From Candidatus Sigynarchaeum calidifontis (GTDB taxonomy: Archaea; Asgardarchaeota; Lokiarchaeia; Sigyniarchaeales; Sigyniarchaeaceae): a DNA stretch of 40,161 bases. Both the position numbers and the translations under genes were made by a program. The notes under the pieces are model-generated. The model worked only from the letters and a program-made list of their open reading frames with translations, searched no databases and had not been told where the DNA came from. Of the stretch, positions 9,850 to 39,399 are shown piece by piece. Every line of letters begins with the position of its first letter. Position 1 is the first letter of the stretch. The stretch lies in the NCBI GenBank assembly GCA_030587475.2, contig JAUQYZ020000268.1, forward strand, positions 1 through 40,161. Reading direction: 5' to 3'.

Positions 9850-10884
9850 TCATTTTTTCGTGGCCGAAACGAGCTGCAGCGCGAGCTTGATGAACGCTGC
9901 TTGCACGTTCTTGCCCGTGAGGGCGGATGTCTCGAGATAATCGAGCCCGAGGCTCGCCATGCACGGGTCGATGTCATCCTTGGTCACGGCGATCCGGCTG
10001 GTCAAGTCGGATTTATTCCCGATCACGAAGCCCGGGATATCCTTCTTCAACGCGAGCTTGATGTCGCGATGCCATTTCGCGACACTCTCGAACGTGTTCG
10101 GGCGCGTCAAGTCAAACACGATCAACTGGCCACTTGCGCCCTCGTAGAATGACCGGCGTGCTAGATCGAACTTGGATTGTCCCGCGATGTCCCAGATCAC
10201 GAATTCCACTTGAAGATCCCCAATTTCGATGATCTTCGTGGTGACGTTCACGCCAATTGACATGATATAGGTCTTCCTGAACGCGTTCTCGGTGAACCGG
10301 AGGATCATCGATGTCTTGCCAACTTCGGGATCCCCGATGACGACGATCTTGTACCGGTACACGTGCTTGGCAGGCATTTTCTCGTCCATCGCGAACGCGG
10401 TCTTGCCACCGGCAGGCATCTCGGCCTTATAGAGCTCCTCGAGCAGTCTCGTGACCCGGCCAAGCAAGTTCTCGATCTCGCTCGTGTAATCCGCCTCGCT
10501 CGCGCCTTTCCCATGCAATGCTTGGAAATGCTTGGCTGCCTCGTCGAATTCCGGATTGAACTCGTTGATGTACTTGTAAAACACCGCGTCGTTCGCGTCG
10601 CTGAAGAGCAGCGTGAGGGTGGCGTTTCCAATCTTGCCCGGGGCGCTTGAAGGATCGAGGGAGAAACACTTGATCAACCCCTTCAACTCGAGGGCGGGGA
10701 AGGTGATCAACTCGACGCCTTTCGGGATCGAATCGCCCCCGCCCGTGCACAAGTTCATGGATTTCGCGCTCACGTGGTTCCGCGTCTCCTCGTCGATCTC
10801 GTCGGGGATCCAACTGACCGCGGTGGGACCGAGCTTCTCATCGTGTTTCGAGAACACGATGCCATACACGAGTTCGTGCTTCAT
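9850..10884 (-). CDS. longin/uDENN-like domain fused to a Rab-like small GTPase
   Basis: The C-terminal G domain has GDPEVGKT, SIGVN, WDIAGQ, FYEGA, NKSD and ETSA. The N-terminal YGIVFSKHDEKLGP..WIP resembles the first strands of NPRL2/AVL9-type longin domains. There is no C-terminal Cys prenylation motif. Confidence 0.88.
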   Translation of the reverse strand: MKHELVYGIVFSKHDEKLGPTAVSWIPDEIDEETRNHVSAKSMNLCTGGGDSIPKGVELITFPALELKGLIKCFSLDPSSAPGKIGNATLTLLFSDANDAVFYKYINEFNPEFDEAAKHFQALHGKGASEADYTSEIENLLGRVTRLLEELYKAEMPAGGKTAFAMDEKMPAKHVYRYKIVVIGDPEVGKTSMILRFTENAFRKTYIMSIGVNVTTKIIEIGDLQVEFVIWDIAGQSKFDLARRSFYEGASGQLIVFDLTRPNTFESVAKWHRDIKLALKKDIPGFVIGNKSDLTSRIAVTKDDIDPCMASLGLDYLETSALTGKNVQAAFIKLALQLVSATKK

Positions 10885-22162: not shown

Positions 22163-22308
22163 TATTCCGTGGTTACAAATCGCGCGGGGAGCAACTTTCT
22201 GTCGCGCGGTCCGGGTTGAGAAAAGGCTTCAAACCACACGCGTGATCTGTTTTGGAAACACAAAACACATATATGTGTAAAGCGTTCATACAATTAGTTG
22301 GTGCGAAA

Positions 22309-23208
22309 ATGATCGATCAGAACGATAAGCAAGATGAGGCTCAGAAGACGGACTCATCCCTGCTGGATAAGCAAGATGAGGCTCAAAAGACACCAGACAT
22401 GAAAAGATTCGAGGAGGAAACCGGCCTGCGGAGCATATGGCGAGGCGTTATTACTGAAACCTATAAAAAATGGGCAAAAGGCGAAAAAGTCTACACCCGC
22501 GAAAAAGAGCGCATTGCGCTGTATGTAAGCGAGGAAGACAAGAATAAATGGCAAGAATTCATCGACAAGCAAGAAAACATGACCTTGAGCAAGCTTATCC
22601 GCACGTCGGTGAATTTTTACATCAATTTCCAACCCCGCATACCCGCGCTCGAGAAGTTGTCGAAGGTCTCGCACGACCTGAAGGAACCATTGACAATCAT
22701 AAAGGGATTTGCACAGCTCTTGATCGACAATTACAAGAACCGCCTTGACCCCGAGGTTCAAACAAAGATCAAGGAAATTTTCGACAAGAGCATCTACCTC
22801 GAAAACCAGATCAAGAAAATTCTCGAAGAAGGCGGAACCGAGACGCCATCGCTCTTCGACATCTTCATCGTCGACGATGACAGCGCTACCGTGGAGCTCT
22901 TGACCTCGTATTTTCAATTCAAAGGTGTCAAGGCCAAGGGGCTTTCCGGTAGCGATAATATCATCAAAGAGATCAAGGAAGCAAACCCGAAACTGATCCT
23001 TCTCGACGTGATCCTTCCCGAAATCGATGGATTCAAGCTTTGCAAGCAAATCAAGTCAGACAAGGCGCTCAACAAGATCAAGGTGTTTTTCGTGACAGCG
23101 GTGCCGGGTTACGAGGTAGAAAAGAAGATGGAAGAGACCCAGGCCGATGGATATTTTCTCAAGCCCTTCGACTTTTCCCAGCTCGACGGGTTAAAAAAAT
23201 ACCTGTAA
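22309..23208 (+). CDS. regulator: short N-terminal module, ribbon-helix-helix, HisKA (DHp) and receiver domain; no HATPase
   Basis: RHH-like ERIALYVSEEDKNKW..LSKLIR, H-box SHDLKEPL, and REC motifs IVDDD, LLDVILPEIDG, VTA and KPF. Start at ATG 22309. Confidence 0.85.
   Translation: MIDQNDKQDEAQKTDSSLLDKQDEAQKTPDMKRFEEETGLRSIWRGVITETYKKWAKGEKVYTREKERIALYVSEEDKNKWQEFIDKQENMTLSKLIRTSVNFYINFQPRIPALEKLSKVSHDLKEPLTIIKGFAQLLIDNYKNRLDPEVQTKIKEIFDKSIYLENQIKKILEEGGTETPSLFDIFIVDDDSATVELLTSYFQFKGVKAKGLSGSDNIIKEIKEANPKLILLDVILPEIDGFKLCKQIKSDKALNKIKVFFVTAVPGYEVEKKMEETQADGYFLKPFDFSQLDGLKKYL
22324..22391 (+). repeat. in-frame direct repeat, 26 bp x2 (42-nt period, 1 mismatch), encoding DKQDEAQKT twice
   Basis: gataagcaagatgaggctcagaagac (22324) versus gataagcaagatgaggctcaaaagac (22366). 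Confidence 0.9.
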
Positions 23209-27053: not shown

Positions 27054-29708
27054 ATGTCTCAAGATGAACATCACAGTGGAAGGCAAGATCCCATGAAAGA
27101 TGGAGGCGCTTTTGGCGCGTGGTCATGGGACGACAATGCTTTGCCCGCGTTCGAGTATTATTGCAAGGAATTCGAGGAACAAGCAGCAAAATACTTCACC
27201 ACGTGGGGCTACGACAACACCCATTACCACTTGCTAGGGAACGGGTGTTGGTTCGGCATTGCTACCAATCACGGGCAGGTCTACTTGATCGACCCCCGCC
27301 GCGGCTTCACGCTCGTCGGGGGGGATCCCGGCGTTACGATACCCGCCCGATCGAGCCTCGTGACCTTCGGCATCGAGGACCAGGACGGGACTGCATGGAA
27401 GGATATCAACACGGCCAGCAGCCAGCCACTCACGCGCCGGGTGTTTGGCGCTGGCTATTACCAGAAAGGGATCGACGCCGGTGCCTTGCACATCTCCTCG
27501 AAAGTGTCATTTCCGTCGGGTGGTGATCCTGTCATCGTGGCCGAATGCATCGTTGAAAATAAGACGAACGAGCCGAGGCAAATCCGACTGGAATCCTCAT
27601 GGAACCTCTTCCACTTGCCCTTGAGCAAGTCCCTCATCGTCAGCTGGAATGGTCGCAAGAAGTATCAGAACAAGGGAATCCTGGACGGGTTGCTCCGCTT
27701 TGCCGTCGCGTTACAAAAACTCGTGATGGCCGATACGGATGGCGCGAGACGCAAGCACTCCGAAGGTATAACATTCACGTTCTCCGAATCTGGATCCAAA
27801 GTGATCGCCATTCCCCGCCACAAGGATGCGGGCAAGCATGATCCGATGGAGCCATCGGGCATAAATTACCATTACAAGCCAATGGCCGTCGCGTGCATCG
27901 ACGATCATCCCGTACCGGCGAAGATTGTTGCAAGGATCCCAGATGGGCAACATGGGCAACGATTGGTGCCCAACGCGGACGCGCGGGTTGTCATGGCATG
28001 TGATATCGAGGTTCCTGCGAAAACTGCCATAACCAAGCGGTTCTTGCTTGCATGCGCCGCGAAGGATGAACTCGATCCTTTGATCGAGAAATACGTGGCC
28101 CTTTCTCGCAGCGGGGGCATGCAAGCGGCGTCATCCGCGTGGTTCAAGGATCGTACGGTTTCCCTCGACGTGCCCCGCATGCAATGGTTAAAGCGCGAGA
28201 TGGCTTGGCACTGCGTCTACGTGTTATCATCGATATTCGCCGACGATTATCACGGGTTTCACCGCGTCCCGCAAGCCTCCACTTATTTACTCGGCCATGG
28301 ATTCGATGGTTCCATCAGGGATTTTTGTTTGTTCTTGTTTCCACTCGCGTTCATGGATCCGGTTCTCGCACGCGAGTTCTTGAAGTTTATCTATACTTGT
28401 ATCGACGAGAAAGGCAAGATCACGTATGCACTTCACGGGTTCGGCATGAAACTCGTCGTTCCCGGAATTCACGAGAACCCGTCGGACCAGTATTTCTTCG
28501 TGATATGGGCAACCGCGGAATACGTTTTCCTCACGAGGGATTTCCAGCTCCTGGACGAGCTAATTCAAATCGAGGGCCGCAATGATAACAAAAAACATTT
28601 GCCCGTCAAGGAATTGCTCGTGCGTCTAATCAAGTACGCGATGTCTCCGGAGATCGGTCTCGGCGAACACGACATGGTACGCGTCCGGGACGGGGATTGG
28701 AATGATGGCATCTCCCTCATGGCAAAGAATCGCAAGGACTTCATTAAAGCGGGCGAGTCAACGTTCAACTCGGCAATCTTGCTGCTCTCGTTTACAAAAA
28801 TATTGCCGCTTATCGAGAGATTTGATTCTGCCCTAGCGCGGGAAATGGAATCGATGCTGGGGCGTGTAAGCCGAGCCGTGGACACGGCGTGGAACGGCAA
28901 GTGGTACTACCGGGGGTACGATGGCAAAGGAAATCCGCTTGGCAACGAGACGCTCTTCCTCGATCACCACGCCTGGATGCTCCAAAACCGGGCATTACCC
29001 GCGGACAAGATCAGCGTGCTGTTGGAACATCTCAACAAGGTGCTCGTAGCAAAATCGAGATGTGGCGCCGCGATCATGCACCCGCCGAACCCGAAGTCAT
29101 CCATCCTCCCGCCAGGTTGGGACATCAACGGCGGGACATGGCACGCGCTGAACTCGCTGCTCGCGTGGGGGCTTCGAATCCGGAGCCCGAACACGACTCT
29201 GGATTTCCTCCAACGCATGAGCATGCACAACCGTGCAGAGCAATACCCGCAGATCTGGTATGGTATTTGGAGCGGGCCTGATTCCTACAATGCAGATGAT
29301 GCCGAGAGGCCGGGCGAGGCTTTTTTCCATGCCTCCACGCCCATGTGCGATTTTCCTTTCATGAATAACAATCTTCACGCGGGGTTCATTGCCGCTGCCA
29401 TCCGGTACGCCGGGATAGAAGCTTGTCACGACAAGCTGCGCGTGGATGTTACCGCCAGTGTTCCATTCACGTTCACGTCTCGCATCATGAACATCAAGAA
29501 AGAAGCAACTTCGATAGAAATCGAACCAGGATGCTCGTTCAAGGAGCCAATAACGATAGAAATCGTGGTTCCGGAAGATTTCAAGACTACCGCGCAGATC
29601 CGCGTGGAACCGGCTAGCGAAAGCTCTCCGACGGTCGTGGAGGGGGTCGCGCGCGTCGAGTGGTCGCCCGAGCGGCCCATTCACAAGATCACGATCACGA
29701 AGGTTTAA
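27054..29708 (+). CDS. GH94-like (alpha/alpha)6 glycoside phosphorylase/hydrolase
   Basis: IRDFC, SDQYF, DGDWNDG, GESTF, WNGKWYYRGYD and NGGTW motifs resemble the cellobiose phosphorylase-family catalytic domain. Substrate unknown. Confidence 0.78.
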   Translation: MSQDEHHSGRQDPMKDGGAFGAWSWDDNALPAFEYYCKEFEEQAAKYFTTWGYDNTHYHLLGNGCWFGIATNHGQVYLIDPRRGFTLVGGDPGVTIPARSSLVTFGIEDQDGTAWKDINTASSQPLTRRVFGAGYYQKGIDAGALHISSKVSFPSGGDPVIVAECIVENKTNEPRQIRLESSWNLFHLPLSKSLIVSWNGRKKYQNKGILDGLLRFAVALQKLVMADTDGARRKHSEGITFTFSESGSKVIAIPRHKDAGKHDPMEPSGINYHYKPMAVACIDDHPVPAKIVARIPDGQHGQRLVPNADARVVMACDIEVPAKTAITKRFLLACAAKDELDPLIEKYVALSRSGGMQAASSAWFKDRTVSLDVPRMQWLKREMAWHCVYVLSSIFADDYHGFHRVPQASTYLLGHGFDGSIRDFCLFLFPLAFMDPVLAREFLKFIYTCIDEKGKITYALHGFGMKLVVPGIHENPSDQYFFVIWATAEYVFLTRDFQLLDELIQIEGRNDNKKHLPVKELLVRLIKYAMSPEIGLGEHDMVRVRDGDWNDGISLMAKNRKDFIKAGESTFNSAILLLSFTKILPLIERFDSALAREMESMLGRVSRAVDTAWNGKWYYRGYDGKGNPLGNETLFLDHHAWMLQNRALPADKISVLLEHLNKVLVAKSRCGAAIMHPPNPKSSILPPGWDINGGTWHALNSLLAWGLRIRSPNTTLDFLQRMSMHNRAEQYPQIWYGIWSGPDSYNADDAERPGEAFFHASTPMCDFPFMNNNLHAGFIAAAIRYAGIEACHDKLRVDVTASVPFTFTSRIMNIKKEATSIEIEPGCSFKEPITIEIVVPEDFKTTAQIRVEPASESSPTVVEGVARVEWSPERPIHKITITKV

Positions 29709-29712
29709 CAGG

Positions 29713-30216
29713 CTATTCGTGCTTTTTATTCTCCGCGTGCGTGATCTTTTTCTCGACCGTGATGTAACTGGGCTCGAACCCGATAGCCTTGACGATCGAC
29801 AGCATCTTGGCCGGGTCTGGCTTCATCGCGATCTTTATGCGGATGAGATCCGCGTGCATGGCCGTGAGCATGGCGATGGCCTTCTCCGCGAGTGCCCTAC
29901 CCACGCCCGCACCCCGGAACTCCTTCTTCACGCCCCAGTTCGAGAGGTACCCGATCGAAATGCCGTCGGGAGTGTTCGTGTGTAACTCGATGAACCCCAT
30001 GCCCACGACCTTTCCATCGATTTCCGCAATGAGCGTGGTGCGGCTGTATCCCGGCTGAAACAATCGAAGGCCAGCAGATTCATTCCACTTTTTCTTGTCG
30101 AAATAAAAGCTGAATGTCTCGCTGATCTCCTCCATGAGCTCGATCGTCGCCTCGTAATCGCTCTTCCGGTAGTTTCGCACGAGGACCTTGCTCGCAAGGG
30201 AATCGGGCTTGGACAT
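29713..30216 (-). CDS. GNAT-family N-acetyltransferase
   Basis: LIAEIDGKVVG and GVKKEFRGAGVGRAL (acetyl-CoA binding motif A). Confidence 0.9.
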   Translation of the reverse strand: MSKPDSLASKVLVRNYRKSDYEATIELMEEISETFSFYFDKKKWNESAGLRLFQPGYSRTTLIAEIDGKVVGMGFIELHTNTPDGISIGYLSNWGVKKEFRGAGVGRALAEKAIAMLTAMHADLIRIKIAMKPDPAKMLSIVKAIGFEPSYITVEKKITHAENKKHE

Positions 30217-30217
30217 G

Positions 30218-30676
30218 TCAAATCTCCTTCTTCTTCAAAGTGATATCGAACGACCTTGAAAAATGGCCGATTTTTTTCAAGAAGTTCGTGTTCAAAACGC
30301 CGATGAGCTTGTCGTTGTCGTCGATGATCGCGACGCGGTTTACTCGATTGTGCTTCTTGGAAAAGGTTTCCTTGAGTTTTTCCCACGGTACAACCGTCTC
30401 GTTCGCTTTCACGCAGTAGACGGGCGTTGCCATCACGTCCCTGGCAACCAAGTTTTTCGGATCTCTCGCCTTGGAAACGAGATTCAAGATGACGCCGTCC
30501 GTGATTATACCAAGGATGTGCTCTTCCTTGTCGACGATGAAGATGCTATCGATCCAATGGTCGACCATGGTACGCGCGATCTCGGCTATGCTCGTCTCGG
30601 GAGCGGCCATGAACACCTCGTCCTCGGCTATGTCGAGGTACGTGAGGCGTGGGCCCTTGTAGATTTCGTTTGACAT
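30218..30676 (-). CDS. stand-alone CBS-pair (Bateman) protein
   Basis: IFIVDKEEHILGIITDG, ARDVMATPV and VAIIDDNDKLIGVL. The start was moved to ATG 30676 (MSNEIYK). Confidence 0.88.
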   Translation of the reverse strand: MSNEIYKGPRLTYLDIAEDEVFMAAPETSIAEIARTMVDHWIDSIFIVDKEEHILGIITDGVILNLVSKARDPKNLVARDVMATPVYCVKANETVVPWEKLKETFSKKHNRVNRVAIIDDNDKLIGVLNTNFLKKIGHFSRSFDITLKKKEI

Positions 30677-30690
30677 GCTGCTTTCACGCT

Positions 30691-31743
30691 TCAGATAGCC
30701 TTCAACTTGGTCGTGACCAACTTTTTCTGGAAAATGGGCTTGCCGTCTTGCTTCACGGTCACGAGGTACTCCTCTTTCATTTTTTTCCCGCCGACACGCT
30801 CGAACTGGAAATTGAGCTCCTCGCCCGCGAACCAACAATCGATGGTAACATCGTAAAAATATTTCTCGAAGAATTCTTCCATGTAGGCGATACTCACGAC
30901 ACAATTGTAGATTTCATCGCTCGATGAATTCACCAGCGTGATGTGGATCTTGTTCTCGTCGTTTTTTAACAAGGCCTCGGTCATCGTGATCTTCGAGCGT
31001 GCAGCCGAGCCGATGTCGACGATCGGGGGCCGCTCGATCGCTTCGAAGAAGCCGTTCTCGCCCTTTGAGGCGGCAGGCTTGCCCTTGATGTCTTGATAAA
31101 GCAAGTAGGCGAGGGCCTTGCGCTTGTCATCCTCGGTTGAAACGTTCAATTCAAGCTGTTTTGCAAATTCTTGAAGGACCGTGCGGATGGTGCGGGTCAT
31201 GGAATCGAGGATTTTCTGGCCGGCGGCGGATACATCCTTGTCGTGAGGGCTTTTTATGATCTTCGCGTCGCAGATGGCCTTTTCTATGGCTGTGGAGAAT
31301 TCGTCCATGTGGCGAGCCGTGATTGCTTGGTATAGCTTCGAGAGGAGGTCGCCGCCGAATGGATTGAGGCTGATGGGGATGCTCAAGATGAGGACGATGG
31401 TCTCCGGCGTTTTTTCGTCCATGCCGCTCCGTTTCTTTTCCCTGTGGCTCGGAGCCAGGAATTTTTTCGCCAGGTAGTTCCGGCCACCGAACTCCAGATC
31501 GACATGGCTTAACTCGGCCTGGACATCGACCCCCATCCACCAGATCGAGTGGATGAAGACGGTTTTCGATTCTGCTTGCAAAAACTCGGTGTCATTTTTC
31601 AGCTCGGGAGGGTGGACGAGGAGAAGCTGGTGGCCGCGAGCCTCGTCAAAATAAGCCAGGTAGATCACGCAGAGCTTTTCGAGATTTATAGCTGCGCCGC
31701 CATCTGTTCCCGCTGGTTCACTCTTCTTTTCAAAGAAATCCAT
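30691..31743 (-). CDS. longin/uDENN-like N-terminal domain plus shared C-terminal Ig-like domain
   Basis: IYLAYFDEARGHQLLLVHP is an NPRL2/DENN-type beta1-beta2 motif. The C-terminal region reads IHITLVNSS..FFEK..WFAGEE. Start at ATG 31743 with a GGGGGA SD-like sequence. Confidence 0.7.
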   Translation of the reverse strand: MDFFEKKSEPAGTDGGAAINLEKLCVIYLAYFDEARGHQLLLVHPPELKNDTEFLQAESKTVFIHSIWWMGVDVQAELSHVDLEFGGRNYLAKKFLAPSHREKKRSGMDEKTPETIVLILSIPISLNPFGGDLLSKLYQAITARHMDEFSTAIEKAICDAKIIKSPHDKDVSAAGQKILDSMTRTIRTVLQEFAKQLELNVSTEDDKRKALAYLLYQDIKGKPAASKGENGFFEAIERPPIVDIGSAARSKITMTEALLKNDENKIHITLVNSSSDEIYNCVVSIAYMEEFFEKYFYDVTIDCWFAGEELNFQFERVGGKKMKEEYLVTVKQDGKPIFQKKLVTTKLKAI

Positions 31744-31797
31744 GCTCAATCCCCCGATAGCCCATACCGAGCTTGATATCGGCACGCGTCAGTGCAT

Positions 31798-32997
31798 TCA
31801 AGCCCCGTTGATGCTGCTCTTCAAGATCCCGAGTTTGCCCTCGTTTGCATCGATTTCGAGGGTCAACTCGGTCACGCCCTTCGCCAGCTTGATGCCTTCA
31901 AGCCGCTTCGATTCACCGGGGGCGATCGCTGAGAAGCCGGCCATCCAGGGCTTCGTCTCGAAGAACATGTCCTTTATACCCGTGACCTTGCACGTGCAGC
32001 CGTGGAAGGCAGAGGAACCACTGTTTACCAGGGTGATGTCGATCTCGTCCTCGCCGCGCCGCTGCATGCTTGCGAGCTTGAGCGGTTTGACCTGGAACGC
32101 GGGCTTCATGGCTTGCTCGCTTTTCATCGCGGATTCCGGCGTTTCAAAAAACGGCACGGTCTCTTGCTTCTCGGTGGAGAGATGGCCCTCGTCGATCTCG
32201 ATGGGTATCTCGAAGCTGATGTCCTCGCCGTTGAATTTCGTCCCGGTGACCGCGAGGTACCACTCGTTGAAATCGCCGAACTTGTCATTCCACGTCGTCT
32301 TGTCCTTCGGCTCCCACTCGTGGCGCGTGCTGAGCTCGGCCGATTTTGGAACCGTCAGCAAGAGGAAGCCGGTCGTCGGGTTCCCCGTCCTCGCAGCGCC
32401 GGCCGCGGATGGCGGTATCTTGGGGACTCGCGTGCAGACGCGGCCGTACTGCGTGCAATTGCACAGGATATTCGAGCGTTCCATGAGCAATACTTTCAGC
32501 TCCTTGAGATCCCTCGCTTCGAACGTGATCTTGATGGTCTCGCCTGGTCGATAAATGTCCTTTTGCAAGTTGAGCTTGAGCCCCTTGATCGCGAGCACGA
32601 TGGGGTTGACCTCGAGGATCTTGTTCTTGTTGCGATCCTCGACCAGCAAGATCTCGCCGGCGTCGAAATATTCCTGATCCGACGCGCCGTCGCTTTCGCC
32701 GCCGGGGACGCGCGAGTAAGCCTCCATCTTGTACCGCACGCCGCGCTGGCCGGAGGAGGGAACGACGTTCGCGGGCAAGGGGATGGACACGGATCGTACA
32801 TATTCCCCCGCCTCGAACTTGCCGTTGCAAAAGATCTCCCGCTGCTCGATGATGAGGGGCTTCTCGCACGGGCGGATAGCGCTCAATCGAACGCCCGTGT
32901 ACTTCACTTCCGCCTTCCCGTCGATGGTGACCTTCACGTTGACGTTAACCGGCGCCCCTATCTTGGCTCGTTGCGGGAAATCTATCTTGAGCTCCAC
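31798..32997 (-). CDS. arrestin/Vps26-fold protein with Cys cluster plus shared C-terminal Ig-like domain
   Basis: Arrestin_N-like GKFEAGEY..SIPLPANVVPS..VRYKMEA, arrestin_C-like LNLQKDIYRPGETIKITF, a CNC-x6-C cluster, and a C-terminal IDITLVNSG..FFET..IAPGE. Confidence 0.72.
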   Translation of the reverse strand: MELKIDFPQRAKIGAPVNVNVKVTIDGKAEVKYTGVRLSAIRPCEKPLIIEQREIFCNGKFEAGEYVRSVSIPLPANVVPSSGQRGVRYKMEAYSRVPGGESDGASDQEYFDAGEILLVEDRNKNKILEVNPIVLAIKGLKLNLQKDIYRPGETIKITFEARDLKELKVLLMERSNILCNCTQYGRVCTRVPKIPPSAAGAARTGNPTTGFLLLTVPKSAELSTRHEWEPKDKTTWNDKFGDFNEWYLAVTGTKFNGEDISFEIPIEIDEGHLSTEKQETVPFFETPESAMKSEQAMKPAFQVKPLKLASMQRRGEDEIDITLVNSGSSAFHGCTCKVTGIKDMFFETKPWMAGFSAIAPGESKRLEGIKLAKGVTELTLEIDANEGKLGILKSSINGA

Positions 32998-33078
32998 GCG
33001 GGATCACGGGAATTGCTGAATTCGTCAATTTATCATTGGAATTGGAAACAAAAAAGCTATTGTTGGAACGGGCGGCCA

Positions 33079-33999
33079 TCACTTGCTGTGTGAGGAAATC
33101 ACGACCTCCGCGAACAACTGCAAGTCCCGAAGCAGTTCCGAGATCTTCTCCTCCGTGCTGGTGGATGCACCCTTTGGCTTCATGACCAGCACCGCGAGCA
33201 CGTACTTGAAGATGTGGAGTTCCAGGTCCTTGTCGCCATCGACGGGCGTGCCCTTGAATGCTGCTGACTCGGCCATGAAGAGGTTTTCGCGGATCACGTT
33301 GCACGAGTGGATGAAGTCCCGGAAGTCGCTGCGAAGTTGGAGGCCGGCGGAAACGCCGGGAACGTTGTGAACGATGACGTTGCCAGAGATGTCGGCCACG
33401 ATGATCTTGGCATCGATCTCCTTGAGTTGCTTCTCGGCTTTCTCCACGTGCGCCTTCAGCGTCTCGTAACTGCCAACCAGGATGTCTCGGAAGATACGAT
33501 TGAGCTTCTCTTGCTCGTAAATTGACGTGGTGTAGGTCTGGACCTCGAAACCCTTGAATAGGGTATCGAAGAGATCCTTCGCCTTCTTGTAGTTCGCGTC
33601 GAGCATTTCCTTTGGATAGTCATGGGTATCGAATTTATGGTAGAGCAAAAACACCTTGGGTTTCAAGGCCTTCTTTCGAAGCGCGTCGATGACTTTTTCG
33701 AAATATGACTTGGCTTTCTCGAGCTTATCTGGGTCATGCATATCAACGATGGGGACAAGCACGTCGGTCTCGTTGAAAACGTCCGGCTTGTCGATATAAC
33801 TCTGTCGATAAGAGTCTTGACCACCATAGTCGAAGATAGACACTTCCAGTCCGAGATATGGATGCCGGCGCACCTCATACATGATGGTGGGGCTTAAGCA
33901 TTCTGTACTCTCGGGAGACTTCATCGCAAACGTCGTGGCATAGATAGATGTCTTCCCAGAGCCGCTAAGACCGATTAAGGCGATTTTCACGATTTTCAC
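33079..33999 (-). CDS. Gtr1/RagA-like GTPase with C-terminal roadblock/longin-like domain
   Basis: GLSGSGKTS, LSPT, FDYGGQ, HKFD and TTSIYE are Rag-like G1-G5 motifs. A ~115-aa C-terminal alpha/beta domain follows (IIVADISGNVIV). Confidence 0.85.
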   Translation of the reverse strand: MKIVKIALIGLSGSGKTSIYATTFAMKSPESTECLSPTIMYEVRRHPYLGLEVSIFDYGGQDSYRQSYIDKPDVFNETDVLVPIVDMHDPDKLEKAKSYFEKVIDALRKKALKPKVFLLYHKFDTHDYPKEMLDANYKKAKDLFDTLFKGFEVQTYTTSIYEQEKLNRIFRDILVGSYETLKAHVEKAEKQLKEIDAKIIVADISGNVIVHNVPGVSAGLQLRSDFRDFIHSCNVIRENLFMAESAAFKGTPVDGDKDLELHIFKYVLAVLVMKPKGASTSTEEKISELLRDLQLFAEVVISSHSK

Positions 34000-34043
34000 C
34001 AGTTTTTGACTTTTCTCCTAGTTGTTATTCGACTGATATCATT

Positions 34044-35582
34044 TTAAGGCTTTTGTTCCTTCGCTGGTGGCTCGCCTTTTTTCTTTTCTTTCGCAGCCTC
34101 CTTTGCCACCTTTTCAACCGCTTCGTCTTCCAGCAATTTCTTGATGCTGATCTTCTCGCTGAGCAAGTTGTCCGTCGCCGTCCGCACGTCGATTAATATT
34201 TCGAGCGTGGGTACCTGGTCGTCTGGCACGCTGAGCGGATAGTCAAAGACCATCGATTCATAGGGGTAGAGCTCGGCCACGGACGTGCGCCACGCGATCT
34301 TCTCGAACACGTCGATCGACAGGCTGATGCGGAGGTCAAGCCCCTCCATCGTGTACCCGGACTCGTTGTCGAGCGAGAAGCGGACGGTCTTGGTCTTGCT
34401 GGAGAGCTTGACGTTCTTGAGCTTGAGTTTCTTGGCAAGAAAGGGTGTTTTTGGCAGGTTAGACGCTTGGACAACCGTTCTCTGGGTGCTGGTCTCGCCT
34501 GGCGTTTCAGGTGTCGTGAACACGTACTGCGTGCGCACGTTCACCGTGTACTGCGAGACCTTCTTCATGCGCGCGAGCTTCAGCAATGTCTCGAGCCCGT
34601 CGTGCTCCAGCGGCTTGATCTCGAGGTAGCCGTGCGCCGCCGCGTCCTCGACCAGCAGCTGCCCGAGCGTCGTGCGGCACAAGACCGTGTTGTACCCTTC
34701 CGGCGACCCGACCGACCCGACCGAGACGTCGGCGGCTTCCGACGTGAGGTCCGTGCAGAAATTGCACGACGACGACTTGTACCTGTTGAGCTGCGGGATC
34801 CTGTATTCCTTCAATTTCTCGCCTTGCTTGTTGAAGATGTTGAACTTTCCCGATGCAATGTTCATCTTTCCCACGTCTTTGAGACTGACGCCATCGCGCT
34901 CGAAGAACCCGTAGAGGGTCTCCGGCTCGAAGCTGTCCATGCAGAACAAGCCGATCTTGACAACGTTCGCGCGCAAGTTGTACAGTATCATGCCATACGG
35001 CGACTTTTGCATCTTGTCGACCGCGTCGATGTTGCAAGGCGTGCCCACGAACGCGACGGCGTGATTGCCGGCTTTCAAGGCCTTGAACAGTGCCCTGACG
35101 GTCTGCGAATGGACGTATAGCGACCCCGACGCCGCAAGGATGTCCTCGCGGGTGTTGACGAACGCCGGGATCGCCCGCCACGACTCGTCGTGCTTGGTGA
35201 CGACAGCCCCGTCGATGAGTCTTTTTTCGAGCATAAAGAGAAGCAGCGTGGTCACGGTTCCCCCGTCCTGTCCCTTGACGTCCGGAACCTTTGACTTCGC
35301 GATGTATGCGGCCTGGAAGGAGCCAATCAAGTCCTGGGGAACGGTTTTCGTCCGAGGGCACTGGTTGTAGCACACGCCGCAACCCGTGCATTTGCCGACC
35401 AGTTTCGGCTCGTTGTCGACCCAATCGAGCACGTCGCAGGTGGCGACGCACGCGGAGCACGCGCAACAAACGCCGGATTTCACGACTTCCTTCATGAGTT
35501 TCCCGAACGCATCCTTTCCCTTCTCGATCCTCGTCTGGAGATACGCGTACGGGATTTTATCGCTTGATTCTTGCTGTGCCAT
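34044..35582 (-). CDS. FrhB/FdhB-family F420-interacting flavo-FeS protein with N-terminal 2x[4Fe-4S] and an extra C-terminal Ig-like domain
   Basis: CCACSACVATC and CTGCGVCYNQCP ferredoxin motifs, plus GQDGGTVT, VGTPC, IGLFC, CNFCTD and DVSVG. An atypical ~150-aa C-terminal extension follows. Confidence 0.9.
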   Translation of the reverse strand: MAQQESSDKIPYAYLQTRIEKGKDAFGKLMKEVVKSGVCCACSACVATCDVLDWVDNEPKLVGKCTGCGVCYNQCPRTKTVPQDLIGSFQAAYIAKSKVPDVKGQDGGTVTTLLLFMLEKRLIDGAVVTKHDESWRAIPAFVNTREDILAASGSLYVHSQTVRALFKALKAGNHAVAFVGTPCNIDAVDKMQKSPYGMILYNLRANVVKIGLFCMDSFEPETLYGFFERDGVSLKDVGKMNIASGKFNIFNKQGEKLKEYRIPQLNRYKSSSCNFCTDLTSEAADVSVGSVGSPEGYNTVLCRTTLGQLLVEDAAAHGYLEIKPLEHDGLETLLKLARMKKVSQYTVNVRTQYVFTTPETPGETSTQRTVVQASNLPKTPFLAKKLKLKNVKLSSKTKTVRFSLDNESGYTMEGLDLRISLSIDVFEKIAWRTSVAELYPYESMVFDYPLSVPDDQVPTLEILIDVRTATDNLLSEKISIKKLLEDEAVEKVAKEAAKEKKKGEPPAKEQKP

Positions 35583-35669
35583 TCCATGTCACCATCTCGC
35601 TTTCGCGACAAGCGAGGATGATCCAAGTCCAAAGAATCCTTCGTGATTTTGTTCTATCATGTCGTTGCC

Positions 35670-35681
35670 ATTAATAATTTT
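35670..35681 (-). promoter_or_regulatory. putative archaeal TATA-like box for the FrhB-Rag cluster
   Basis: Minus-strand aaaattattaat, about 90 nt upstream of ATG 35582, an AT-rich island in GC-rich DNA. Confidence 0.4.
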
Positions 35682-35956
35682 GCGCGGCCTTGAAAAAAGG
35701 ATCGCTGCCCGTGCACGAAACCGGCGAATCGATCGCCCGTTTGGATCGGCCATTCGCCGGATCTAATACCGCGTGCGGCGGCGTTTCTTGAACCAAGCAC
35801 TAAACGGCGCATTGCCGGTAGATGAGCATACCAACCGGGTCTTTAACTGATGAGAAAAGAGGAGGACCAGATGAAACGGCAGGAGAAACACGCATTGGCG
35901 GCTAGCAATTGCAACAGGTCGAGCCGTAGCGTGAAAAGATCCCCGATGCGATCCGG

Positions 35957-36454
35957 TCAGCCTTTCTGTTCCGGCGGCGAGTATTTTTCCAGAACGATCT
36001 TCGACTCCTCGATCAAGGCATTGCGAACCTCGTTCGATGAATCGTACTCGCCCAGGTACACGATGCGCTTGATGCCCGCGTTGATGAGAATTTTCGTGCA
36101 ATCGATGCAAGGGAAGGCGGTCACGTAGATGGTCGTGTTACCTTCGATGGAGGTGCCATGGCGTGCTGCTTGGATGATGCAGTTGAGCTCCGCGTGTACC
36201 GCGCGGCACAAGTGTGGGTCCTTGCCCGATGGAATGTTCAATCTCTTGCGGACGCACGTGTCCGGCGTGCAGTGTGGCAATCCCGCGGGCGTACCATTGT
36301 ATCCTGTGCTGATGATGTGCGAATCTTTCACGAGGACAGCACCAACGTCCCGTCGCAAGCAAGTCGATCGCTTGGCAACGATCTTTGCGATTTCCATGAA
36401 ATACTCGTCCTTCTCGAGGCGCCGTTTGGGCACGAACTCGTCCTTTTTCGTCAT
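35957..36454 (-). CDS. dCMP deaminase (ComEB-like)
   Basis: RSTC.RRDVGAV, TGYNG, VHAELN and FPCIDC motifs. The start was moved to ATG 36454. Confidence 0.92.
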
Positions 36455-36482
36455 CGATGCCGCGACCTCCACGTGATGAACA

Positions 36483-37898
36483 TCATGATACCGGGGTTTT
36501 AATGAACTTCTGGTGGAGGGCATGGATGGCGGCCTTCAAGTCCTTCGGCTCGATGAGGAAAGAAATGTTCAGCTCCGAAGACCCTTGCGCGATGGCGCGG
36601 ACATTCACGCCCGCATCGCCGAGGGCAGTGAACACCCGGCCCGCGACGCCTTTTTGATAAGCCATGCCGTGCCCGACCACGGCGACGAGGCTCGTTTCCT
36701 CGCGAGAGATGTCGAACCACGCCTTGCCGAAGTCGGGGTCCTCGAATAAAGCCTTCACGGCGAGTGGGCCTTCTTGTTGGCTCACCACGAACGTGATATT
36801 GTTCTCGGATGACGCTTGACTGATGAACATGATGTTTATTTTCTCGCGGGCCATGATCGTGAATAGCCGCGCTGCGATGCCTGGCAGTGAAACCATCGCC
36901 GCGCCTTGCAACGTGATCATCTCGCAATTCTCGACGCACGCGATGGACTTGACGATACTACCGGTTTCTTGCTTTTCGCTGGAGATGCGCGTGCATTTCG
37001 CATCCAGGTCCTTGTTGAAGTTCCGGATCTGGACGGGGATGCCCTTTTCCAAGGTCATCCGCAAGCAAATGGGATGGAGCACCTTCGAGCCGAAATAAGC
37101 GAGTTCCTTGGCCTCGTCGTAGGAGATGTCCTCGATCAACATGGCCGACGGCTCGATCTTCGGGTTGGCCGTGAGCAGCCCGTCGACATCCTTCCAAAAG
37201 AGTACCTCGGGATCGTAAAACTGGGCGAGAATGTTCGCGATGATCGTGGCCGTGAAGTCTGAACCACCCCGCCCTAAGGTGGTGGTCAAGTGATCCTCGG
37301 TTTCCGCATAATATCCGGTGATGATCGCAAAGGCACCTTTCTCGAGCACGGGAAGGATGGCCTTCTTGACCTTCTCCTCCGTCTTGTCCATCATCGGCAT
37401 CGCGTTCCCGAAATCAGCGTTGGTGGTGATGACGACCTCCCCCGAGAGATACTCGGCGGGGATGCCGCTCGATCGCAAGAAGCACGCGAAGAGGAAGGTG
37501 GACAAACGCTCGCCGAATGAAACGATGTAATCTTGCAAGTGCGGGGGAAGGCCGCCCTTGTAAATGTCCCGCGTGGCACCGAGCAGCTTGTTGAACCGCA
37601 CCGAGATGAAATCGAGCGCATCCTGGAGCGCCACGTCGTCCTTGATCATCTGCCGGGCCATGTCGACATGGAAGGCTTCGAGCCTCGCGCAGAAAGATTC
37701 CGCTGCGGCCAAGTCATCGAGGGCAAGCTTGATCAGCTGGAGCAACTGGTCGGTAACGCCCTTGAATGCCGATAGCACGGCGACGGTTGGCGTGCCGGTG
37801 TACCGCTTCATGATGGACAGGGTCTTGGAGAAAGACCCGGCGTCGGCCAAGCAGCTGCCTCCAAATTTATGAATGACCACTTTTTGTTTGCTCGGCAT
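36483..37898 (-). CDS. lysC: aspartate kinase with two ACT domains
   Basis: [49 protein letters not shown], and ACT repeats (QASSE, QGSSE). Confidence 0.95.
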
Positions 37899-38151: not shown

Positions 38152-39399
38152 TCACAAGAGCCAAAAATCCTTGAACGTGTTCTTGGCGGTTTGTTCCCGG
38201 CGGATGCGCAATTCTCCCCAACCCTTCTTGTCGGCCATGGCGGTGTTGCAAATGGCCTTGCCCAGGAGCACGTTCGGGTTGTCGCTCCAGTTCACGTTGA
38301 AAAGCAAGCAGAGCCAGTACACAGTGGACTGGATGAATGCGATGAGGTGGCCTATGTTCTTGACCGTGGGCACGTCGATCGAAAGCATCGCAGAGGGGAT
38401 TGCTTTCTCGATCAAGGCCTCGAGCGTCGCGTTCGCCTGGTAAAGGATCGTCTGCGCCGCGGTTTTCCCTTCGATGTACGATATCGACGAGTTGAGCGGC
38501 ATGTCGTTGGGATCCTTGTCCACGACCCAGAGCAGCGGCATCGTGTGGAATTGCTTGTTGAGGAGCAGCTCGAGCACGCTATGCTGGCACATGGGCGCGG
38601 GCTGGCTCGTGCCGAGCAGGCCGAGGCCGTTCTTGCCCGTGCTTTCCGACAGCTCTTGCACCCACAAGCCGACAGCGCCTTCCAGCCAGGAGAAATAAGG
38701 CATGGAAAACACGTTCCTGAAGCCGTTCTTGTAGAGCCGGAAGAGATAATAGGCGAATCTCTTTGCGATGTTGGCCGAAAAGGGAAGCTTGGGGCCATAG
38801 AGCTCGTAGCCCTCCTCGAGCCCGCTGACGAACACGTCGATGTTGATCCCGGCCAGGTAAGCAGGGACCAGTGCCACGTTCGTGCAAGATGCGGCGAAAC
38901 GCCCGCTCAAGTCGGGCACGTCCATGATGGTGGCCCCGTAGGTCCTGAGAATGCTGTTCATGACACCCTTCGAGTTCAAGCCGAGGATCTTGTACCGGCC
39001 GAAGAGCCCGAGCACGGAATTGATGTCGAGGGTCTCGCCACCCCGTGAAATGGGCACGACGATCGATTTATCCTTGATGCCGGGCACCTTGAAGAGCTCC
39101 TTCAACGCGGTTGGCCGGGAACTCGTGATGGTATGCACGCGCCTCTCGACGAACGGCAGCAATGCCAGAAAGGCCTGGATGCTTCCACCGGTCCCGATCA
39201 CGACCACGTGCTCGATGCCCCGCTCGAGGATCGGATCGCAATGCCGCTTGATCTCGCCCATGTCGAAGCATTTTCTGGGCTCGAAAAAGAACGGCTTGTC
39301 CCAGTTCTTGGCGTTTTTCTTGAGCTCGAAATCGACGTCCATGTTGTCCGCGGGGAGCGCCGGGTAAAATTCTATGTCCAGTACGGGCATGGTTTCCAC
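38152..39399 (-). CDS. pgi: glucose-6-phosphate isomerase (PGI superfamily), divergent
   Basis: IGTGGS, ISRGGET, SGRF, QELSESTGK (catalytic Glu), QHS (His) and terminal GK (Lys). The start could be GTG 39399 or ATG 39390. Confidence 0.75.
   Translation of the reverse strand: METMPVLDIEFYPALPADNMDVDFELKKNAKNWDKPFFFEPRKCFDMGEIKRHCDPILERGIEHVVVIGTGGSIQAFLALLPFVERRVHTITSSRPTALKELFKVPGIKDKSIVVPISRGGETLDINSVLGLFGRYKILGLNSKGVMNSILRTYGATIMDVPDLSGRFAASCTNVALVPAYLAGINIDVFVSGLEEGYELYGPKLPFSANIAKRFAYYLFRLYKNGFRNVFSMPYFSWLEGAVGLWVQELSESTGKNGLGLLGTSQPAPMCQHSVLELLLNKQFHTMPLLWVVDKDPNDMPLNSSISYIEGKTAAQTILYQANATLEALIEKAIPSAMLSIDVPTVKNIGHLIAFIQSTVYWLCLLFNVNWSDNPNVLLGKAICNTAMADKKGWGELRIRREQTAKNTFKDFWLL

Follow-up and report, generated by a model that had tools for sequence, protein, structure and literature searches.

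Asgard archaea encode dozens of small GTPases together with longin and roadblock proteins, and the locus described here raises the question of which proteins work with one of these GTPases, a member of the Rag family. The locus lies at positions 29713–35582 on the minus strand of a 40,161-nucleotide (nt) stretch of Candidatus Sigynarchaeum calidifontis DNA (contig JAUQYZ020000268.1), which we refer to in its full length as the window. Reading of the open reading frames (ORFs) of the window identified six co-oriented genes, G1 to G6, separated in this order by spacers of 44, 81, 54, 14 and 1 nt, exactly as described in the original prediction made from the sequence of this DNA. They encode an FrhB-family iron-sulfur (FeS) flavoprotein (G1, 34044–35582, 512 amino acids [aa]), a Rag/Gtr1-family small GTPase (G2, 33079–33999, 306 aa), a predicted arrestin/Vps26-fold protein (G3, 31798–32997, 399 aa), a predicted longin-domain protein (G4, 30691–31743, 350 aa), a stand-alone CBS pair or Bateman module (G5, 30218–30676, 152 aa) and, 1 nt after G5, a GNAT acetyltransferase (G6, 29713–30216, 167 aa). 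Our analysis indicates that the row probably represents a conserved Asgard signalling or assembly module around G2, in which a shared tail domain would serve for docking and the longin protein for regulation. The module itself is real and conserved; the mechanism is a proposal. Three independent genomic signals single out this one Rag paralog and its likely partners (a longin protein resembling folliculin, a CBS sensor, the redox flavoprotein and the protein with an arrestin fold), namely neighbourhoods that are rearranged yet conserved, a rare tail present on three of the proteins, and longin-CBS fusions.

For the neighbourhood survey, 28 loci with G4 homologs were examined over as much as 10 kb to either side of the homolog, and all ORFs were scored with the six window proteins and two profiles. 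The phyletic survey covered 400 genomes of the phylum in about 33 families; related genomes are not independent, and the results are given as counts, not statistics. The family to which the window belongs (f1) carries the order G1-G2-G3-G4-CBS-GNAT. In f2, GNAT-GNAT-G4 is divergent from G1-G2-G3, and the arrangements in f5, f6 and f7 are CBS-G4-CBS2-G1-G2-G3, G1-CBS-G4::CBS and CBS-G4::CBS-G1-G2-G3, respectively. Members of f16 show G4'-G4-CBS-G1 converging on G2, with no G3, and both f20 and f21 have CBS-G4-(peptidase C25)-G1-G2-G3. The f32 locus consists of G4, an HdrA-like gene, a second FrhB gene (FrhB2) and G1, followed by G3-G2 on the other strand. Conservation of the neighbourhood across Asgard genomes had been proposed beforehand as a check, and we found it conserved in about 10 families, in rearranged order and with different flanks. 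G1 and G2 were adjacent wherever examined, including four genomes of f4, and G3 was usually next to them. A further locus (L005), reached via a 34%-identical G3 homolog, reads HEAT-G1-G2-(IS605 TnpB)-G3'-G3 and has unrelated flanks. Because the arrangement recurs in many genomes, it goes beyond chance.

The distribution of the individual genes follows the same families. An ortholog of G2, defined in the phylum genomes by E ≤ 1e-70, was found in 155 of the 400 genomes, most of them carrying a single copy, and it represents one copy among the 20–70 small-GTPase candidates of each genome; one genus has a second G2 paralog (E 1e-121). G3 was found in 134 genomes and the G4 family in 174. The G2 ortholog, G3 and G4 are all confined to f1, f2, f4, f5, f6, f7, f20, f21 and f32; f16 contains G1, G2 and G4 and lacks G3. 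About 23 further families have none of the three, among them f3, which belongs to the same order (0/14).

Other genes were also observed within these neighbourhoods. In L005, a distant relative, the Rag gene is separated from a tandem pair of G3 paralogs by an IS605 OrfB/TnpB-type gene (L005:4182–6131). In f20 and f21, a large peptidase C25 (gingipain-family) gene separates the longin gene from the FrhB-Rag-arrestin trio; these genes are located at L042:7336–9408, L044:6933–9545 and L051:2642–5188, and two of them contain DUF4350/GIFT-like domains. HdrA-like, Nfn/GltD-like, polyferredoxin and second FrhB genes were located at L059:8637–12245, L057:4793–8073, L038:2535–3896 and L039:12464–13816.

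The strongest link among the cluster genes is the shared C-terminal tail, which the original prediction had missed. Profile-profile comparison showed that G1, G3 and G4 end in homologous immunoglobulin-like (Ig-like) domains of about 100 aa (hhalign, G4 with G1 99.5%, E 3e-23; G4 with G3 96.4%, E 1e-9; G3 with G1 96.1%, E 4e-9), whereas control comparisons with the longin domain and with the remaining sandwich domains of G3 stayed below 2%. By eye, the tails follow the pattern [TS]LxNxS ... FFE ... W ... EEL.F. BLASTP detected the relationship between G4 and G3 (E 8e-7) and found nothing between the G1 tail and the tails of G3 and G4, where homology is visible by profiles only; a word-based search with the G1 tail likewise returned close FrhB orthologs only. 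The fold of the tail is a generic Ig-like sandwich, while its sequence family is rare: the G4 profile recovered only about 100 proteins from 1.84 billion representatives. Among these, five proteins of about 500 aa were matched at their C-termini and were assigned to FrhB by Pfam. In one 215-aa metagenomic protein (P0096), a metallophosphoesterase N-terminus is followed by the final ~65 residues of the tail domain, which match the G4 profile with E 7e-25; this may be either another tail-domain architecture or a gene-call artefact.

The third signal connects the longin protein with CBS domains. Pfam identified two CBS stretches in G5 (58.5 bits against a cut-off of 24, E 8e-16), and CBS genes flank the G4 homologs in f1, f5, f6, f7, f16, f20 and f21. 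The two are also fused in single proteins, as in P0025 (34% identical), in P0057 (641 aa, with four CBS repeats) and in frames of 644–645 aa in L038 and L041, the latter two coming from two further families. The association of GNAT genes is narrower. G6 matches Acetyltransf_1 (36.4 bits against a cut-off of 20.7, E 7e-9) and retains an intact acetyl-CoA motif, RGAGVG within FRGAGVGRAL; its NCBIfam and PDB matches are weak and generic. GNAT is paired with G4 in f1, f2 and f4 only and is not in the clusters of f5, f6, f7, f16, f20, f21 and f32, which makes it a lineage-specific accessory of G4 outside the conserved core.

G2 is composed of a G domain (about residues 1–180) and a conserved C-terminal domain of about 120 aa. 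It scores 81.3 bits with the Pfam family Gtr1_RagA (PF04670; cut-off 22, E 9e-23), and in the PDB it is closest to 8yl2_A (5e-20), then to human RagA (1.5e-16) and yeast Gtr1 (7e-14). The first of these is an archaeal-looking "GTP-binding protein", and a paper on PDB 8YL2 was not found in our literature search. The motifs invariant in 15 orthologs are the P-loop GxxGxGKTS, DxGGQ, HKxD (H121-K122-x-D124) and TSIY (T158-S159-I160-Y161). HKxD replacing NKxD and a G5 motif TSI[WY] make up the Rag-type signature of RagA and Gtr1. In Rag proteins the C-terminal part is a roadblock-type dimerisation domain; the profile of the C-terminal domain of G2 searched against PDB sequences gave designed repeat proteins only, which are spurious matches. 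G2 resembles eukaryotic Rag/Gtr proteins in its Rag-type G domain, with both HKxD and TSIY, in its additional C-terminal domain, and in having RagA and Gtr1 as best eukaryotic PDB matches.

G4 contains an N-terminal domain at residues ~19–125, a helical region extending to ~221, a disordered linker and the Ig-like tail (250–346). No significant Pfam match was found for it, and its profile searched against PDB sequences gave no longin match and only a weak helical match to Topo VI-B, so the longin assignment derives from fold. In the AF2 model (pLDDT 72.7) the order of secondary-structure elements fits the b-b-a-b-b-b-a of longin domains. Comparison with VIA placed FLCN at the top (6nzd_H, Z 11.3 over 146 aa), followed by the Lokiarchaeal Roadblock-Longin protein 8yqg_B (Z 10.4), BLOC-3 (Z 10.2), FNIP2 (Z 10.2) and GATOR1/NPRL (8fw5_B, Z 9.4), with SNARE and adaptor longins also present. 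The Foldseek list for whole G4 was dominated by the generic Ig-like tail (RhoGDI, Kir, GH2), the longin domain becoming visible by VIA. On the basis of the model, the N-terminal domain of G4 is thus predicted to be a longin closest to FLCN/FNIP/NPRL. The eukaryotic longin-domain GTPase-activating protein (GAP) complexes are FLCN-FNIP for RagC/D and GATOR1 NPRL2-NPRL3 for RagA/B. The likeness of G4 to these complexes includes a conserved Gly-containing motif before strand 2, which belongs to the invariant YFDEARGH, and an Arg-rich b4-b5 loop, in which the motif SxRxKxRSGM..TPET is invariant (R101, K103, R105, S106, G107). The invariant arginines of G4 are R36, R88, R101 and R105; the Arg fingers of FLCN and NPRL2 lie in the b4-b5 loop. 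A complex prediction for G2 (alignment A3) with G4 (alignment A1) scored 0.00 against a mark of 0.32 and was used neither for nor against binding.

The G3 protein comprises two beta-sandwich lobes (residues 1–120 and 133–270), a disordered linker with a conserved FFE motif and the Ig-like tail (306–395). Its AF2 model (pLDDT 83.7, pTM 0.72) accordingly shows three beta-sandwich domains. The best Foldseek match was VPS26C (4e-11), followed by VPS26, arrestins, TXNIP and Rgp1, with probability 1.0. VIA-align gave Spo0M (Z 14.4), Vps26 (Z 13.2, 239 residues), ARRD-6 (Z 12.7, 256 residues) and arrestin (Z 12.5, 232 residues). Together, the first two lobes are predicted to form an arrestin-clan fold, which upholds the arrestin call, a point named beforehand as one on which the proposal could fail. 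With the arrestin clan (Vps26, alpha- and beta-arrestins, TXNIP, Rgp1, Spo0M) G3 shares the two-lobe beta-sandwich over 232–256 residues at Z 12–13. It differs in the third, C-terminal Ig-like domain, in the absence of a significant Pfam match (Arrestin_C, E 0.017, 15.9 bits against a cut-off of 27.7) and in a set of four cysteines, C44, C179, C181 and C188. All 18 homologs compared, the most distant at 32% identity, keep these cysteines, which could constitute a redox-active site or one that binds a metal or an FeS cluster. The fold matches of G3 include TXNIP, an arrestin under redox regulation, and the G3 gene sits beside a redox enzyme gene.

FFE motifs are also encoded outside the tails, at 31033–31059 and ~32134–32163, in the linkers before the tails, and at 31729–31743, at the N-terminus of G4. 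The linker motif is kept across the G3 family, with F284 invariant, and FFE is found in close relatives of G4 as well. Across the wider G4 family, the general FFE is the one within the tail domain, and N-terminal FF motifs occur in a minority. An FFAT-like reading of these motifs was considered and has partial support at best, the linker FFE not being general in the wider G4 family.

The architecture of G1 includes an N-terminal 2x[4Fe-4S] ferredoxin domain, a core of FrhB_N and FrhB_C, and about 170 residues beyond this core, which form a linker, the shared Ig-like domain (~100 aa, about residues 385–490) and a Lys-rich end, KEAAKEKKKGEPPAKEQKP (34044–34110, minus strand). Lys-rich tails of this kind were found elsewhere in close relatives only (L001, L003, L006, L060). 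The Pfam matches are above threshold (FrhB_FdhB_N, 68.4 bits, E 6e-19; FrhB_FdhB_C, 135.7 bits, E 1.5e-39), and among solved structures G1 comes closest to 8riu_B (1e-49), followed by Fsr in its N-terminal half (7np8, 2e-46) and by FrhB (3zfs_C, 3e-40). Pfam was therefore in agreement with the FrhB call of the original prediction, as it was with its Rag, CBS and GNAT calls. The eight ferredoxin cysteines, QDGG, C183, C214, C273 and C276 are invariant in 20 orthologs, among which the stretch DLTSExADISVGSVG is also conserved. Since the cofactor ligands are conserved, G1 looks like a working FeS flavoprotein. It shares the ferredoxin-type 2x[4Fe-4S] domain, FrhB_N, FrhB_C and all cluster cysteines with FpoF, the Fsr N-terminal half and FrhB, which are F420H2-oxidising electron-input modules. 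In contrast with these, G1 falls under the NCBIfam cut-offs (PRK09325, 226 against 269; frhB, 182.6 against 331.5; FpoF, 145.6 against 475), carries the additional C-terminal Ig-like domain common to G3 and G4, and has no adjoining hydrogenase, Fpo or sulfite-reductase partner. As had been noted before, no hydrogenase or formate dehydrogenase catalytic subunit was found near the cluster in the window, and FrhA/G, Fpo and Fdh genes were not found beside G1 there. Based on the presence in the genome of CofD and CofG above cut-off and of a CofE-like gene below cut-off, F420 is plausible in this organism.

How would these parts work together? The shared tail could serve all three of its carriers for docking, so that redox enzyme, adaptor and longin regulator would gather at a single site, which might be the GTPase, one another or a membrane patch. 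By analogy with the longin complexes of eukaryotic Rags, G4 may act as a GAP or a guanine nucleotide exchange factor (GEF) of G2, and the CBS pair may tune G4 through a bound nucleotide-type ligand. G1 would tie the switch to the cellular redox state, either as a sensor or as a regulated effector. The GNAT protein, as a lineage-specific accessory of G4, would possibly acetylate one of the components.

Compared with the eukaryotic Rag complexes, the cluster has an FrhB-type enzyme, an arrestin-fold protein and a CBS protein as partners, its shared Ig-like tail has no eukaryotic counterpart, and neither Ragulator-like nor TOR components were found next to it. The module is set apart from known Rag-longin systems by its redox enzyme, by the protein with the arrestin fold and by the private domain at the ends of three of its proteins. 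Rag-like GTPases, many longins, and FLCN/NPRL2-like longins are themselves known as eukaryotic signature proteins of Asgard archaea (10.1101/2020.10.19.343400; PMC10933270; PMC12290439). Liu et al. described a conserved Asgard operon in which a DENN protein is encoded together with a Rab-like GTPase and a LAMTOR1-like roadblock protein (10.1101/2020.10.19.343400), but its GTPase is explicitly outside the Rag family, to which G2 belongs. Tran et al. (2024) reported that the GTPase genes of MK-D1 do not, in general, share operons with genes for roadblock or longin proteins, which prevented the matching of partners (PMC10933270). Our literature search found no paper linking FrhB, a Rag GTPase, an arrestin fold and a longin protein, in keeping with the earlier statement that the combination was undescribed. 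The locus supplies a set of partners that can be tested for this archaeal relative of the nutrient switch of eukaryotes. With five or six small soluble proteins, it makes testable the role of Rag-longin signalling before TOR and lysosomes, and it suggests an unexpected tie of a eukaryote-type switch with archaeal F420/FeS redox metabolism.

A number of observations weigh against the interpretation of the row as a module around G2. Eukaryotic Rags act as heterodimers, whereas the cluster holds a single Rag gene. In G4, the invariant FDExRGH falls, structurally, where GAP longins have their GP motif, a motif that lies at or just before strand 2 and is found only in GAP longins and some Asgard longins (PMC12290439). 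G4 has R36-G37-H38 at this position, with Pro replaced by His in nearly all homologs and GP present in 1 of 34 representatives. Also, no DENN core follows the longin domain; the AF2 model instead shows three long helices and the Ig-like domain, and a match to DENND1A (Z 8.7) covers model residues 17–212 only, that is, the longin and helical regions. Of the earlier longin/uDENN call, the longin fold, also named beforehand as a point on which the proposal could fail, stands, and the uDENN part amounts to likeness of fold. In f4, the largest family, G4 and the GNAT gene that follows it are separated from G1-G2(-G3) by 11–75 kb, as measured to G3 within one contig for at least 22 genomes; in the four f4 genomes examined for G1-G2, G3 is adjacent to that pair, ~4 kb off or 80 kb off. 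In the closed genome G189, distances between the parts range from 80 kb to about 0.7 Mb, and in G170 (92% complete) G4-GNAT is present and G2 and G3 orthologs were not found. The closest relatives, of which the nearest named one is Candidatus Sigynarchaeum springense (88% for G4), keep the flanking aspartate kinase, dCMP deaminase and GH94 genes too, so their loci give no independent support, and kinship makes related genomes non-independent samples in general. Finally, the 81-nt spacer between G2 and G3 (32998–33078, minus strand) contains a TTTTTTGTTT run after the G2 stop and then an A/T-rich stretch. As read from the sequence, this spacer may act as a putative internal terminator and promoter, in which case the row may be two transcripts, G1-G2 and G3-G6.

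The interpretation can also be extended further than we would commit to. The module might be a surviving archaeal Rag nutrient-sensing hub, in which a FLCN/NPRL2-like longin GAP would be set by CBS, an F420/ferredoxin enzyme and an arrestin adaptor would be docked through their "ears", and redox or energy, not amino acids, would be the ancestral input. We regard this extension as tentative and, taken as a whole, unlikely to hold.

The main rival is a recruitment or cargo (effector) model, for which we see a real but minor chance. Here the GTPase, the arrestin/Vps26 adaptor and the longin regulator would bring the FrhB enzyme, and with it perhaps FeS flavoproteins encoded nearby, to a membrane site or into a larger complex, and redox chemistry would be the output. 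Proteins with arrestin/Vps26 folds serve as cargo adaptors, and Vps26 and Rgp1 are among the folds closest to G3. G1 keeps all its cofactor ligands, like a working enzyme, has the electron-input architecture of FpoF and Fsr-N, and ends in a Lys-rich tail in this clade. Further FeS-flavoprotein genes (HdrA-like, Nfn/GltD-like, polyferredoxin and a second FrhB) adjoin the module in f5, f7, f16 and f32. These redox neighbours, however, vary by lineage and are absent from the window, whose cluster also lacks a membrane anchor, a lipidation motif and an acceptor enzyme, and the CBS association points to small-molecule sensing in the system.

The scheme of the original prediction, in which the redox state read by G1 and the adenylate charge read by G5 are integrated by a longin GAP/GEF acting on the Rag switch, with acetylation by the GNAT protein as output, appears improbable in full. 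Every part is present and contiguous in the window, the Cof genes described above are in the genome, and the GNAT protein has its acetyl-CoA motif intact and is tightly coupled to G4 in f1, f2 and f4. Acetylation cannot be the general output, however, because GNAT is not in the clusters of seven families. The direction of the signal in this scheme is an inference, and adenylate would be a putative ligand of the CBS pair.

The least credible explanation, which we consider very improbable, is inherited synteny without joint function, with the tail a common Asgard Ig-like module that has a separate role in each protein: Ig-like domains are common folds, the closest relatives conserve the flanks as well, and the separation of longin-GNAT from FrhB-Rag in f4 and the genomes G189 and G170 break the set, but the same families re-cluster in other orders, orientations and flanks, the tail is rare and specifically common to three members, G4-CBS fusions exist and the family-level patterns of presence and absence agree.

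Returning to the module at the level of the locus itself, two gene starts could be considered from homologs. We assigned the start of G4 to the ATG at 31743 because its homologs all open with MDFFE or MEFFE. The orthologs of G2 open with MKISLIGL and the genome-search alignment begins at 33990; therefore, the true start of G2 is probably the GTG at this position, nine bases inside the longest ORF, which would make the first gap 53 nt. Upstream of G1, a 374-nt intergenic region (35583–35956, minus strand) is a candidate promoter region, containing an oligo-T run and an A/T-rich box, aaaattattaa, ~90 nt before the ATG of G1. Beyond it lie the genes for dCMP deaminase (35957–36523) and aspartate kinase (36483–37898), both on the minus strand, and downstream of G6 a GH94-like gene (27054–29708) converges on the row.

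Elsewhere in the window, a protein encoded at 22252–23208 on the plus strand has HisKA and receiver domains, with no HATPase domain detected. A further Asgard small GTPase is encoded at 9850–10884 (minus strand); this 344-aa protein carries a Ras/Rab-like G domain in its C-terminal half (Pfam Ras, E 6e-44), preceded by ~175 N-terminal residues without a Pfam match. Upstream of the aspartate kinase gene, a 415-aa ORF without a Pfam match (38152–39399, minus strand) has a counterpart of 414–415 aa at the same position in the relatives L001, L003 and L004.

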